From: a virus
Taxonomy: Duplodnaviria > Heunggongvirae > Uroviricota > Caudoviricetes
Strand: one strand, 5' to 3'
Virus record (IMG/VR): IMGVR_UViG_2657244940_000006
Length of the DNA: 5,484 bases
The notes beneath the pieces are model-generated. The model was not told the origin of the DNA and made no database searches. It saw only the letters and a list, made by a program, of their open reading frames with translations. Made by a program: the position numbers and the translations under genes. Shown piece by piece: positions 43-5,140 of this stretch; positions within the stretch are counted from its first letter, which is position 1, and the number at the start of each line of letters is the position of its first letter.

Positions 43-567
43 TCAGACCGTGCGCATGGTGCTGATTACCAGCAGCACGGACAATGTCACCTCTGTAGAG
101 CGGTTTCCGCTGGGTGAGTTATGCCTGTTGAAAAAATCAACGATAGCGTGGAGCGCGACTGAGCGCATTGCGTCCTTTTCAAAAAGGATCTCATGGTACG
201 CACCTTTAATTACCAACGGCCGTCCTCCTTCGACAGGATGGCCCGCAGCGGTGCGTAGTTCACAAAAACGGTCGTGCATGCGGTTATCAACAAACTGATG
301 GTTTTCATTGATAATGCGGGACCAGCCATCAACGCCAACCACCGGAACGATGCCGTTCTGCTTGTCAGGGAAGGCGTAAATTTCTTTCGTCCAGGGATTA
401 AGGCCGTACTGGTTGGCGACGATCAACAATGCGATAAATTGCGCATCGCTGGCATCACCTTTAAATGCCGTCTGGCGAAGAGTGGTGATTAGTTCCTGTG
501 GGTCGACAGAATCCATGCCGACACGTTCAGCCAGCTTCCCTGCCAGCGTTGCGAGTGCTGTACTCAT
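43..567 (-). CDS. bet: Bet (Red-beta) single-strand annealing protein, N-terminal ~90 aa only; C-terminal ~85 aa unrelated to lambda Bet (chimeric or truncated bet, possibly a pseudogene)
   Basis: Residues 1-89 (MSTALATLAGKLAERVGMDSVDPQELITTLRQTAFKGDASDAQFIALLIVANQYGLNPWTKEIYAFPDKQNGIVPVVGVDGWSRIINEN) match my recollection of lambda Bet almost exactly; QF at 91-92 also agrees, then similarity is lost (junction about nt 290-300). ORF is 174 aa versus 261 aa for lambda Bet. Start lies 5 nt downstream of the gam stop, as in lambda. AGAGG Shine-Dalgarno-like motif upstream of the ATG. Confidence 0.6.
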   Translation of the reverse strand: MSTALATLAGKLAERVGMDSVDPQELITTLRQTAFKGDASDAQFIALLIVANQYGLNPWTKEIYAFPDKQNGIVPVVGVDGWSRIINENHQFVDNRMHDRFCELRTAAGHPVEGGRPLVIKGAYHEILFEKDAMRSVALHAIVDFFNRHNSPSGNRSTEVTLSVLLVISTMRTV

Positions 568-572
568 CCGTT

Positions 573-869
573 TTATACCTCTGAATCAATATTAATTTGG
601 TGACGGGCGATGGTTTCAGCCATGTAGCGGATGTGTTCTGCCATGCGTTCCTGAAAATCGACATCGTCATCAAATGCACGGGAAATAGCTTTTTTGCTGG
701 CCCCGTGACGTTGCAGATTATCGATGCATAGCGATTCAAACAGGTGTTGGGGCAGACCTTTTTCCAGGTCGTCTGCCAGCTCAGCTTCAGTTTCTTCACG
801 GGCAATTTGCTGGTAGTGTCGTGCCCATGACTGCTCTTCAATGCGATCGGGGATAAGCCAGGCATTCAT
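573..869 (-). CDS. gam: Host-nuclease (RecBCD) inhibitor Gam, short 98-aa form
   Basis: Protein [98 protein letters not shown] is near-identical over its length to the C-terminal 98 aa (GamS form) of lambda Gam as I recall it. Strong RBS GGAGGTGA about 8 nt upstream of the ATG. The ATG overlaps the stop of the upstream 690-aa gene (ATGA at 866..869). Confidence 0.9.
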
Positions 870-2938
870 GATTTATCACCTCCGAAATTTTCAAGCCTGT
901 TGGCAATCATGATGGCGATATCAGGGATTGCTGGCGCTGTGGCTATACATGCGGGGTTGGCGCACAAACCATAGACGGCGGCAATCACGAGCTGTCTTTT
1001 CCAGTCGAGAGTTACTGGCTCAGAATTGGCGTCATCGCCGGACGTATCACTGCCTGGCTCGTTCTGAACAACGGTTTCGCCCTCCTGAGCGGCATCAACA
1101 GAGTTTTCCTGAATGATCTTCTCCTCAGTTTGTGCTGAGTCTTCTCCATCAGCGGCGTCATTTTCTCCAAAAGTTTCTGTGTAAGTGCTATCGCCCATTA
1201 CCGCACTACAGTCAGGGCAGTTACCCCCGCCAGTCTGACCACAGACGCGGCAGTTTTTTTCCAGCTCCGGTTGCGCTACTGGCCCTGGCTGTTGCTCTTC
1301 TGGCCCGTTTTGTTGCGTATCCGGGCTGTTTTGTCCCGCTTCTGGGGCAATTTGTTCCACTTTGGACTGATTCTGGTCCTCAGTGTCGCGAGTCTGGATC
1401 CCCTTCACCCACTTCGGATCAGCAGGGTTACTGATGCCTTCAACGAATTCTCCACGCGAGGCAGCCAGTAATTTGTCGGCATCGACTGGATTTTTTGGGG
1501 GGATGTTTTCCCTGGCTTTATTGAGTTCCTCCCTCAGTTCCTGGTATTTCGTTTCTACAGATGAGACATTTTCCAGTGATTGCGTGTCCTCATTATGTTT
1601 AACTGGAATTTCTTCCACTGATTCAGGCGCTGCCTGTTCATTAGCCATTGTGTCCGATGCTTGTTGCTTTTCTTCATCGCCATGTTTTCCTTCTGCTGTT
1701 CCGCGCTGCGGCATCGGTGCTGATGAGCGACCGCAGGCAATTTCCACGATTTCCGGATCCGGGTTAGCGTGATCGGTTTCGGTCAACACTTTGTTGAGAT
1801 ATTCAGTCACGCGTGCCGGGATGGCCTCAATGCCGATTGGTGCTTCTTTCACGGAAGCCACCACAATGGCGCGGGAATAATCCAGCCCACCGGGCATGGC
1901 GATAAATTTGTCGCGAAAAACAGAAAAGGGCGGCTTATTCTCTGACACGATTTCTTCAACGCGTTTTGCGTGTGCTGGGTGCAGGTTATAAATATCCACA
2001 TCCATTGAACGGGCCAGAACGCCGGTGGCTACATCTCGTGCGAGTGATGTCTTATCATGTTTGAATCCTTCACCACGATCGGTAATATTTCCGCCGCCAG
2101 CGTTAGCACCGGAAGGCGTACGGGTAATGCCTGAAACATAATTTCCGTTCTGCCATTCTTTTGTCAGCAGGCCCTGATCAAGGTAGTCAGTTTTCATCCA
2201 GGTGGAAATGAACTTGTCGAATTCAGCCGGGCTGATGCGATGATTTGCAGAGTGGGGGAATGCTTTCCCTACAGATTCAGCCAGGCGACTAAGGTGATAG
2301 TTCGTCAGTTTATCCAGTTCATGATGCGCGGCGCGCACAGCAGTAAGCAGGCTCTGAAGGTAACTGTCCTCTGTGTCCATCTCCATACGGATCACGTTAT
2401 TGCGTTGTTCTGGTGTGGCATGATGCCGGTATTTTCCATCTTCATCTTTGCTGAATAAGAAGAGGTGAAGGAAGCGATGAGTAAGGCTCAGAGTGGCGAC
2501 GGGAATTTCACACTCAGAACAGTCATCGTCGCTGTCCGGGGATTCGCTTTTCTCCACATCATCCGGAATAGTTCCGTCCAGGTTATCGTTGTCATCGCCA
2601 GCAGTTGTGGCATCTTCACCGTTGATGTTGTCATCGAAGGGGATAGCCATCATGGTGATGCCATCGTTACCGCCTTTTTCATAGCGGTTGCAGAATTCAG
2701 TATCAAACACGCCTTCCGGTGGAAGGTCATTCACAACGGGTAAATGGACGCGGATGGGTTTTTTAAAATCCTCTTCGTCAAATCCGGCATCGTCCATTGC
2801 AGCAACACCGCGTGATATTGCAACCGATAATTTTTTTGCTGTGCGCCAGTAAAAACCACCTTTAATCCCAAGGCGTTTTCTGACTTTGTCATTTTTGGCT
2901 TCGTAATATAGTGCAATTTCTTCTTTATCAGCGTTCAT
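866..2938 (-). CDS. Large (690 aa) highly acidic hypothetical protein with CxxC-x7-CxxC zinc-ribbon-like motif and hydrophobic C-terminal segment; occupies the kil / ydfE position between ydfD and gam
   Basis: Uninterrupted 2073-nt ORF; ATG at 2936..2938 preceded by GAGG about 7 nt upstream; stop overlaps gam start. Composition: D/E-rich low-complexity tracts (aa ~100-145 and ~415-645), a central less biased segment (aa ~145-400), Cys563-x2-Cys566-x7-Cys574-x2-Cys577 (nt 1208..1252), a further CxxC at aa 140-143, and a hydrophobic stretch aa ~648-680. No family recognised from memory. Confidence 0.8.
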
Positions 2939-3030: not shown

Positions 3031-3219
3031 TTATCCAGCCGGTGTTTCGTTATTCAGGTACAGCGATACTTTTTTTAACGGGAGGCATTCACCGGGGATT
3101 TTTTGTTCGTCCCTTACCTGAATGCAGGATGACTTACTGTCATAAATTCCGGTAATCACATTCTGCGGCTCACCCGTTATAAGAAAAACGGTCATTATCA
3201 GTGCAAACGCTGAAGTCAC
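3031..3219 (-). CDS. ydfD: YdfD-like small membrane (lysis-associated) protein, 62 aa
   Basis: Immediately downstream of dicB with a 4-nt overlap (GTGA; GTG start at 3217..3219, GGAG about 9 nt upstream). Hydrophobic N-terminus (MTSAFALIMTVFLITG) consistent with a single transmembrane helix. Size and position match the K-12 Qin dicB-ydfD arrangement. The alternative ATG at 3193..3195 lacks an RBS. Confidence 0.55.
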   Translation of the reverse strand: MTSAFALIMTVFLITGEPQNVITGIYDSKSSCIQVRDEQKIPGECLPLKKVSLYLNNETPAG

Positions 3220-3404
3220 TGCTGTTCTCCGATAATACCAAGTTCAAGAAGGGCAATTCTGGAAAGTATGGAATTATCATTGAGAAGATAAGGTTCATAT
3301 TTTCTCATCTTAATGGCATCTTCAGTAAACTCCCGGTTACTGAGCAGAACTCCAATATCAAAACAACCTTCAGACGTATTAACGTTTGGTAATAACGTTT
3401 CCAT
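3216..3404 (-). CDS. dicB: Cell division inhibitor DicB homolog, 62 aa
   Basis: Protein METLLPNVNTSEGCFDIGVLLSNREFTEDAIKMRKYEPYLLNDNSILSRIALLELGIIGEQQ; the N-terminal ~33 aa closely match my recollection of K-12 DicB (MKTLLPNVNTSEGCFEIGV...TEDAI), the C-terminal third diverges. RBS GAGGA 7 nt upstream of the ATG at 3402..3404. The supplied ORF 3216..3551 is an artefactual N-terminal extension running through the dicF-dicB spacer. Confidence 0.85.
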   Translation of the reverse strand: METLLPNVNTSEGCFDIGVLLSNREFTEDAIKMRKYEPYLLNDNSILSRIALLELGIIGEQQ

Positions 3405-3575
3405 TATCGCGTCCTCAACAATGAATTTTGTGATGCAGTGCCTGGTGCCTCCAGGTGACGTTAACCAGTTAACAACTAACGCCGGGTCAGGGGACGATGA
3501 CTTTCCGTGACATCCTGTCGGTTTAACTGTTCCGCGTGCGCATAGCCGCATTCACCGCATCACAAAATTCACTTT

Positions 3576-4424: not shown

Positions 4425-4730
4425 TCAGGCGGTCAGCTCTTTAAGCTTCTGAACTGCTTTATTCATTTCATCCATACAGTCGATGAATTCGTCCAGTTTA
4501 AGCTGCATTTTTCCGGCGGCCTGAAGAATTTCAAGTTTTAAGGGCGCAAGTTTTTTGTTGAATGCATCATCTTCCTGGCGTTTTTTCTCCGCAATTTCGG
4601 CGGCTTTCAGCAATTCTTCAGCCTGTTTTCTGAGTATTTCTGGTGAAGGTGAAACTGCTTTGAGGTTATTCATTTCAGGTTCCTGTTGTTGCAGAATTAA
4701 TTTGTTGCATTCTCTGCGTGAGCGTTTCAT
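4425..4730 (-). CDS. Hypothetical coiled-coil-like protein (101 aa)
   Basis: ATG at 4728..4730 overlaps the stop of the upstream gene (ATGA at 4727..4730), suggesting translational coupling. Sequence rich in K/E/A/L/Q heptad-like segments (EILRKQAEELLKAAEIAEKKRQ...). Alternative internal ATG at 4671..4673 with AGGA upstream. Confidence 0.6.
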   Translation of the reverse strand: MKRSRRECNKLILQQQEPEMNNLKAVSPSPEILRKQAEELLKAAEIAEKKRQEDDAFNKKLAPLKLEILQAAGKMQLKLDEFIDCMDEMNKAVQKLKELTA

Positions 4731-5137
4731 TGCAGATTCGCACTTCTTGCAATAAATGGCTCTCCCGTCACGCTTGCTGGCATCTGAATAAAAATCATTG
4801 ACTGATTTTGTCTGCCCGCATCTGGTACATAATTTTGATTGAAGGTCCTTAATGATTGTGACGTTTCCTTCCCGCTTGGGATATCCATATTTTTGTGGCG
4901 TAAAAAGGTTACTCCGTTACCAGAACCTTCTTTTCTGACCTTAAATACAATGATGCTTTCCCGTTTATCGATAAAATCGATGAGCTGGTTTCTCTCCTTT
5001 CCTGACAGTTCGGCAAATGTCTTAACTTTTTTAGTAACCTCAGTAAGGCGAACGCCGTCAGGCATTTTTTCAACGAAGTTTTTAATCTCTGCAAGCGGAC
5101 GCCATAATTTTTGCGGCAAAACTGAAGGCGTGGTCAT
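4727..5137 (-). CDS. Hypothetical early protein (136 aa from ATG at 5135..5137)
   Basis: The supplied ORF starts at TTG 5138..5140; the adjacent ATG at 5135..5137 has a strong RBS GAGGTGA about 5 nt upstream and lies 3 nt after the upstream gene stop (5141..5143). No family recognised. Confidence 0.6.
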   Translation of the reverse strand: MTTPSVLPQKLWRPLAEIKNFVEKMPDGVRLTEVTKKVKTFAELSGKERNQLIDFIDKRESIIVFKVRKEGSGNGVTFLRHKNMDIPSGKETSQSLRTFNQNYVPDAGRQNQSMIFIQMPASVTGEPFIARSANLQ

Positions 5138-5140
5138 CAA

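Follow-up and report, generated by a model that had tools for sequence, protein, structure and literature searches.

The gene at positions 866..2938 (minus strand) of the IMG/VR virus record IMGVR_UViG_2657244940_000006 (Duplodnaviria; Heunggongvirae; Uroviricota; Caudoviricetes), a stretch of 5,484 nucleotides (nt) the whole of which is called the window below, is assigned here with high confidence to the RecE (exonuclease VIII)/YdfE family, as a lambdoid early-left-operon protein that lacks a nuclease domain. Its product of 690 amino acids (aa) ends in a conserved helical tail ("tail-type" in the following), and its stop codon overlaps the start of gam. The ATG-initiated open reading frame (ORF) is a real conserved prophage gene, far beyond chance: many recorded contigs carry the identical protein, and over 110 protein clusters of 680-700 aa are 77-100% identical to it. 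The possibility, raised in a preliminary description made from the DNA letters and a list of their ORFs, that the ORF is interrupted in related genomes is not borne out, as its length is kept in those clusters and the ratio of nonsynonymous to synonymous substitution rates (dN/dS) of the whole gene is 0.215 against the homologue of Shigella phage 75/02 Stx.

Family membership and the nuclease domain

The product had been described as an unclassified acidic protein, a view that does not hold, since Pfam, phrog_607, BLASTP and NF007259 all place it in the RecE/YdfE family. PF06630 (Exonuc_VIII) is the sole Pfam match of the window protein (40.5 bits against a cut-off of 25, residues 56-197). The phrog_607 profile, 'exonuclease VII(I)', was matched at E=6.9e-256 over profile positions 1-618 of 883 only, and the NCBIfam equivalog NF007259 over positions 1-598 of 877 only (746 bits, below the cut-off of 1269). 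By BLASTP, residues 58-635 correspond to residues 50-578 of K-12 RecE at 52% identity (E=3e-177). The similarity to RecE and to relatives with a DEDD exonuclease domain stops near residue 592, just past a Cys4 motif. The PD-(D/E)XK family PF12684 (DUF3799) was not found in the window protein by the Pfam scan, the same test that detected it in K-12 RecE and in a 1049-aa relative (P0116); nothing in the window protein was aligned by BLASTP to the nuclease domain of K-12 RecE, and two nuclease-domain queries run with a local phmmer matched no tail-type member. The AlphaFold2 model, built from a 104-sequence alignment with a mean predicted local distance difference test (pLDDT) score of 74, comprises an alpha/beta N-terminal domain, a helical core and otherwise helices only, with no nuclease domain. 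Because neither a PD-(D/E)XK nor a DEDD domain is present, the protein is not expected to be an exodeoxyribonuclease, its database name notwithstanding, and 5'-3' double-stranded DNA exonuclease activity is predicted to be absent as there is no recognisable nuclease domain. In public records the 690-aa product goes under 'exodeoxyribonuclease VIII' or 'RecE family exodeoxyribonuclease'; the former name is unsupported by sequence in hundreds of entries, including those of O104:H4 prophages and Shigella Stx phages.

The protein ends instead in a two-helix C-terminal tail (residues 643-690; 869..1012, minus strand; modelled helices 646-658 and 662-683), with the consensus core QQLTIAALQGLCANPA...IP.MA at the extreme C-terminus and the fuller consensus L(T/S)(Y/W)xQQLTIAALQGLCANPA-x5-(D/E)(D/E)(I/L)PxMAxxLA. 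Across 22 tail-type representatives, with identities of 21-66% to the window protein, the sole invariant alignment columns are L650, A653, A654, G657, N661 and P662 (Q648, Q649, C659, A660 and A675 are nearly invariant), and the window protein has all six. The way the small invariant residues are spaced is suggestive of tightly packed helices. A hidden Markov model (HMM) of the tail matched the window ORF with 75 bits (E=6.6e-22) and no further ORF in ~330 kb of related loci. Searched alone, the tail gave nothing below E=0.07 against Pfam and matched only phrog_26058, a PHROG of unknown function that also matches the core of the window protein (E=2.8e-29, residues 175-425); against PDB sequences, its profile returned only insignificant matches (E=0.008-0.2), to designed helical repeats and to the N-terminal domain of a spidroin, and these were not used as evidence. 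The tail is shared by relatives in other genera, e.g., Enterobacter P0304, which BLASTP matched over residues 147-684, tail included, at E=1e-26. In the precomputed annotation, PF27430 (YdfE_N) and PF27432 (YdfE_C) are assigned to Enterobacter relatives, and the cluster of the window protein is given PF06630 alone.

Two functions of the tail were considered and rejected. A membrane anchor, to which its hydrophobicity might point, is disfavoured as only two E. coli variants exceed a Kyte-Doolittle value of 1.6 (family median 1.04), and a general docking site for Gam, Bet or Exo is disfavoured by the occurrence of this tail in prophages that lack all three. In a sister clade in IMG/VR (L073, L075, L077, L080, L081, L084, L085 and L095) the tail is extended by '...DDEH(I/M)PDF'; as a side observation, this extension resembles the acidic C-terminal tip of SSB.

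Modular architecture, selection and charge

Only 204 relatives were found among 1.84 billion cluster representatives, and a second homologue search, started from a mixed alignment, mostly recovered the E. coli proteins already in hand. Eighty representatives reach 480 aa or more; sorted by their C-termini, 22 have the ~45-residue tail of the window protein, 19 a PD-(D/E)XK nuclease, 14 a DEDD 3'-5' exonuclease (PF16473), two RecT and 23 none of these; a separate Pfam scan of 66 family members gave agreeing proportions. No other class of the family is as large as the tail-type (22/80), and tail and nuclease domain never occur in one protein among the 80. Most of the 23 representatives without tail or nuclease fall into two more recurrent helical C-terminal groups (P0127, P0144, P0177, P0192, P0200, P0225, P0234 and P0261; P0160, P0165, P0170, P0178, P0212 and P0242), one of which ends in '...EYxKYLEGRLRRLEEVK...' and is a coiled coil by appearance. 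The RecE/YdfE family has at least five alternative C-terminal modules, and no recognisable nuclease domain is present in at least half of it, which changes the view of the family as a whole. The DEDD fusions of E. coli (814-847 aa) are 74% identical to the window protein over residues 1-592 and stand in the prophage order dicB-DUF1482-[fusion]-xis-int.

The gene is under purifying selection, core and tail both. With the 75/02 Stx homologue as the comparator for the individual regions, dN/dS was 0.16 in the N-terminal domain, 0.135 in core residues 255-412 and 0.12 in the tail (dS 0.38); it was 0.94 in linker 413-459 and 0.59 in linker 593-642 (42% identity). Linker 521-559 gave 0.16 in this comparison and 0.36-0.73 against more distant relatives. 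Compared with K-12 recE, core residues 255-412 gave 0.085 at a dS of 0.78. Segment 458-512 has a dN/dS of about 0.09-0.12, and linker 101-145 gave 0.48 against a DEDD-type relative. Against the closest comparator the four linkers range from 0.16 to 0.94, and against the DEDD-type relative, for those that could be measured, from 0.48 to 0.63; in those comparisons the folded domains lie at about 0.09-0.17. The gene is also a mosaic: codons 1-97 are 97% DNA-identical to a gene of another genome that is labelled '3'-5' exoribonuclease domain-containing protein', and compared with PhiR5_2 the N-terminal and Cys4 segments have a dS of 0.7-1.15, the remainder of the gene being nearly identical.

From the N-terminus onwards (all coordinates on the minus strand), the protein consists of a confidently modelled alpha/beta domain (residues 1-100; 2639..2938), an acidic disordered linker with a CxxC motif, C140/C143 (residues 101-145; 2504..2638; net charge -17, pLDDT 41-54), the conserved helical core (residues 146-412; 1703..2503; pLDDT about 86-98), a conserved helical segment containing KYQELREEL (residues 458-512; 1403..1567; pLDDT 65-84) that is common to RecE and intact YdfE, a Cys4 zinc-ribbon-like motif followed by VMGDxTYxETF (residues 560-592; 1163..1261; a low-confidence model), a second acidic disordered linker (residues 593-642; 1013..1162; net charge -14, pLDDT 32-38), at which the family diverges into its different C-terminal modules, and the tail. 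The Cys4 motif is kept in K-12 RecE, the DEDD fusions and intact YdfE; it is deleted in P0118 and missing from distant tail-type members. The less biased central domain noted at the outset corresponds to the helical domain 146-410, modelled at a pLDDT of about 90-98. Conserved polar clusters in the core are SGxxAGGGxxTDR, MDxDIY, DYSRA, TExDH and ACGR. The core gave no significant fold match in PDB or BFVD, and the whole protein no match in a PDB sequence search. Neither of the confidently modelled domains corresponds to a solved fold; the core has no recognisable solved relative, and its fold is uninformative on function. A side observation concerns the glycine-rich loop of the core (residues 277-292; nt 2063-2110), which is among the best-kept motifs in all architectures of the family and is confidently modelled as non-helical.

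The ORF list, the composition and the motif positions confirmed the ORF itself, its overlap with gam, its acidity, its Cys4 motif (CxxC-x7-CxxC, C563/C566/C574/C577) and its hydrophobic C-terminus (the most hydrophobic 19-residue segment is 650-668, Kyte-Doolittle 1.75). The product has an isoelectric point of 4.59, 18.1% D+E, 10% K+R and a net charge of -56. Disorder is predicted for residues 106-136, 425-456, 514-561 and 577-644. Four disordered linkers (net charges -17, -9, -7 and -14; pLDDT below 50) hold 47 of the 56 net negative charges, and the folded parts are near neutral (-1 for residues 1-100, -4 for 146-412 and 0 for the tail). Because the acidity thus lies in poorly conserved disordered linkers, folded DNA mimicry of the Ocr/ArdA kind, which had been put forward on account of the overall charge, is not supported. 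The disordered acidic tracts themselves may still act as a DNA mimic. The Ocr and ArdA families were not matched in the Pfam scan of the window protein, and PADLOC gave no match.

Genomic setting and the relation to ydfE

The gam gene (573..869, minus strand) encodes a 98-aa GamS-type RecBCD inhibitor (Pfam Gam, E=4.8e-65). Its ATG (869-867) and the TGA of the 690-aa ORF (868-866) share the sequence ATGA at 866..869, so that the tight coupling to gam proposed in the preliminary description is borne out. GAGG stands 7 nt 5' of the ATG of the 690-aa ORF, and a GGAGG of ribosome-binding type stands 9 nt before the gam ATG, within the last codons of that ORF; a longer form of Gam is excluded because a TAA lies just upstream in the gam frame. 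The gene does hold, as had been claimed, the position of kil in lambda and 933W-type phages, the latter having kil-gam without a tail-type gene.

Intact prophages with the identical protein are integrated at ynfG and have the order N ... dicB-DUF1482-[gene]-gam-bet-exo-DUF4222-int. Close relatives lie in the phage records PhiR5_2 (recorded host K-12 MG1655), Shigella 75/02 Stx, POCJ13 and phiSTEC1589-Stx1c and in O104:H4 prophages; the layout int-exo-bet-gam-[gene] was found in PhiR5_2, 75/02 Stx, POCJ13 and the O104:H4 prophages, and in the annotated relatives inspected kilR and a 128-aa gene stand upstream, replacing dicB-ydfD. Among tail-type loci in IMG/VR, gam lies directly downstream in 66 of 80; in eight of these 66 an AAA_24 (Sak4-like) gene follows gam and replaces bet/exo. 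In the clade with the '...DDEH(I/M)PDF' extension, gam overlaps the 3' end of the tail-type gene by 23 nt and is followed at most loci by a 365-aa AAA_24 (Sak4-like) protein, not by bet/exo. Loci without gam have small Rrf2-like, DUF4060, DUF1187 or winged-helix genes downstream, then xis and int, and the next start codon mostly overlaps the stop of the tail-type gene or lies right beside it. As observed in other genera, coupled small genes in the position of gam (L016:7449-7814, L023:6139-6483, L017:7155-7382 and L024:7889-8131) encode an Rrf2-type helix-turn-helix protein, DUF4060 or a basic 75-aa protein.

It had also been suggested, from synteny, that the gene is the intact form of K-12 ydfE. 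This fails as to identity, the intact allele being a DEDD fusion of 823 aa ('3'-5' exonuclease', e.g., WP_000048333.1, with a DEDD Rv2179c-like domain, PF16473, at 642-813), and stands in so far as the gene is a homologue in the same slot. The K-12 ydfE fragment, which is cut by IS2 before the family core and whose DNA is carried by 3,840 of 5,426 complete E. coli genomes, showed no meaningful similarity to the window protein by BLASTP (E=40); tblastn on the 12-kb Qin locus gave nothing at E<=1, an E. coli-only profile did not match the fragment, and the fragment had no match in the copy of Pfam used. It was matched by the N-terminal ~250 columns of a tail-type subfamily profile (hhalign 98.1%, E=1.2e-13), and it matches Enterobacter P0304 at E=3e-7; in a newer Pfam, the families built on tail-type relatives are named YdfE_N and YdfE_C. 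A literature search on the function of YdfE found nothing relevant.

Immediately upstream of the gene lies a ydfD-like DUF1482 gene (3031..3219, minus strand; Pfam DUF1482, E=3.6e-14), preceded by dicB, which encodes a 62-aa cell-division inhibitor (3216..3404, minus strand; Pfam DicB, E=2.5e-37); the two overlap by 4 nt, as in Qin. A reading of 111 aa is possible for the dicB ORF (3216..3551), the DicB match covering its last 62 residues only, and a 62-aa gene is called in homologous loci. An Rfam scan of the window gave no matches, the DicF small RNA included, and promoter-like sites occur in the window only at background level. Further upstream, a 1-nt deletion relative to an intact 237-aa gene (L007:5801-6514) splits an early gene of phrog_2539 (4425-5140, minus strand) into ORFs 4727..5140 and 4425..4730, a frameshift that marks either a pseudogene or an error of sequencing. 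Downstream of gam, only the 5' part of bet is present (291..567, minus strand, about 93 codons; the RecT/Bet match covers residues 1-94 only). Positions 1-91 match a phage tail-fibre gene (98.9%), positions 89-291 the core gene pldB (99.5%), and every prophage match begins at 288-291. The prophage DNA starts at 291 and bet is therefore cut after about 93 codons; the left end of the window looks like an assembly chimera or a rearrangement, and a look-up of the chimeric bet-pldB ORF (43..567, 174 aa) found no record.

Possible role and comparison with known systems

The best explanation overall, to which we give about an even chance, is that this nuclease-less RecE/YdfE-family protein serves the recombination module as an adaptor without catalytic activity. 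The N-terminal region would be the common working module of the family and would probably target or scaffold DNA ends or recombination/replication intermediates, with an exchangeable partner function contributed by the C-terminus; in the tail-type, an element for protein-protein interaction or oligomerisation would stand in for the covalently attached nuclease. Produced from the pL transcript in a constant ratio to Gam by way of the ATGA overlap, the protein would act at the head of the Gam-Bet-Exo module and give in trans what the N-terminal two-thirds of RecE give in cis. Our confidence in this mechanism is moderate to low. The N-terminal region of RecE has been reported to be dispensable for nuclease activity, yet to boost linear-linear recombination, and the scaffold proposal fits for that reason; a RecE truncation without the N-terminal/core region keeps nuclease and recombination activity (PMC11611040).

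Several observations weigh against an adaptor devoted to recombination. The 14 of 80 IMG/VR loci without gam are the most divergent ones (at most 46% identity), and no gam, bet, exo or recT lies near the most divergent tail-type genes, those of Enterobacter, Citrobacter, Buttiauxella, Lelliottia and Cedecea. Since the tail is invariant in prophages without Red or RecET genes, its partner cannot be Gam, Bet or Exo specifically and has to be sought in the protein itself, in its core or in a host factor that is conserved; for the E. coli clade, common descent and not function could account for the adjacency to gam. The tail is, moreover, modelled at a pLDDT of 55-68 only. We consider it rather unlikely that the protein is an anti-defence or host-takeover factor that neutralises a host nuclease or immune system, with Gam as a co-expressed second inhibitor, either by its acidic disordered tracts serving as a loose DNA mimic or by core and tail binding a host protein. 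Such a factor would suit a gene that lies in the accessory pL stretch among genes directed at the host (dicB and ydfD here, kilR in relatives), that is optional (933W-type phages have kil-gam alone), that still adjoins gam in loci without bet/exo and whose product carries a net charge of -56, and the invariance of the tail across genera, whatever the phage neighbours, favours a conserved host target. However, the acidic residues sit in fast-evolving linkers and the conserved folded parts are near neutral, no anti-restriction family in Pfam (Ocr, ArdA or other) and nothing in PADLOC was matched, and the relatives carry exonuclease domains of both polarities, rarely RecT, which points to DNA processing and not to inhibition.

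A reading that we likewise take to be unlikely treats the RecE/YdfE N-terminal region as a new-fold functional unit recognising a conserved host or DNA target, to which exonucleases of either polarity or a recruiting/multimerising tail are interchangeable attachments, the tail-type protein of the E. coli clade and Gam forming a coupled unit for the control of DNA ends or host nucleases. On that reading, the gene as a natural 'N-terminus-only' allele would explain the unexplained 600 residues of RecE. We give only a small chance to the core 146-412 being itself a new-fold enzyme or ligand-binding module, with nuclease domains and tail as accessories: it is the best-conserved large block in all architectures (dN/dS 0.085-0.135), contains clusters of conserved polar residues and is modelled at a pLDDT above 90, yet matched no solved fold; but it has no recognisable catalytic motif, conserved polar residues would be just as likely at a binding interface, and the known chemistry does not require the core, because RecE truncated of it remains active (PMC11611040). 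The gene might finally be an inert remnant of a recET module that lost its nuclease domain and recT when a lambda-type gam-bet-exo recombined in, as the abrupt end of RecE similarity after ~592, the lambda-like DNA that begins exactly at the gam ATG and the mosaic structure of the gene would allow. Purifying selection on core and tail, the invariance of the tail in relatives only 21-30% identical from other genera, and the ORF length preserved in more than 110 clusters, together with the standing of the tail-type as the largest class of the family, make this very unlikely.

Although RecE is a workhorse of recombineering, its first ~600 residues have no assigned function, and full-length RecE behaves differently from its nuclease domain alone. 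The window gene is a natural separation-of-function allele, an N-terminal region without the nuclease, under selection and beside Gam-Bet-Exo; as it occurs in a phage with a recorded K-12 host (PhiR5_2), the RecE question becomes testable. The sequence was already in databases, the class had been mentioned in print and Pfam families have recently been built on relatives. New are the tail as the feature that defines the subfamily, the degree to which C-terminal modules are swapped (a recognisable nuclease domain is missing from most members), the position beside gam, a clearer view of how the gene relates to ydfE and the recognition that the 'exonuclease' annotation is misleading.

With Ocr and ArdA the protein shares a strongly acidic overall composition and its origin from an early phage gene; their acidic surface is rigid and folded, whereas its acidic linkers are disordered and fast-evolving, and it is about four to six times larger than either. 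Intact YdfE has the family core in common with it (NF007259 positions 271-602, E=1.8e-83), as well as segment 486-592 with the Cys4 motif; the N-terminal regions are remotely homologous (hhalign, via the subfamily profile), and both genes lie directly downstream of dicB-ydfD (window, K-12, HR12-1). Intact YdfE differs in its DEDD domain, which Pfam did not find in the window protein, and in being followed by xis-int with no gam, bet or exo. The Enterobacter-type tail relatives share the tail consensus, and phrog_26058 matches both core and tail, but they are only 21-30% identical and have another middle domain where the Cys4 segment stands; downstream of them come small DUF4060, Rrf2-like or DUF1187 genes, xis and int, not gam.

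Nuclease-less 'RecE-2' proteins, with roles unknown, have been noted in passages of a survey of lambdoid early-left/Rec-module genes (Genome Res 2025, PMC12315714). The description given there fits the window protein, which is probably a 'RecE-2'; those passages of PMC12315714 make no mention of the conserved tail, of module swapping or of a position next to gam. RecE of the K-12 Rac prophage is 89% identical over residues 255-412, shares the Cys4 motif and the 458-512 segment and is likewise encoded in an early-left operon upstream of recombination genes. The first ~250 residues of the window protein are only distantly similar to it; residues 606-866 of RecE form the PD-(D/E)XK 5'-3' exonuclease domain, whereas the window protein ends in the conserved helical tail, and its gene is followed by gam-bet(-exo) and not by recT, as in all close relatives.

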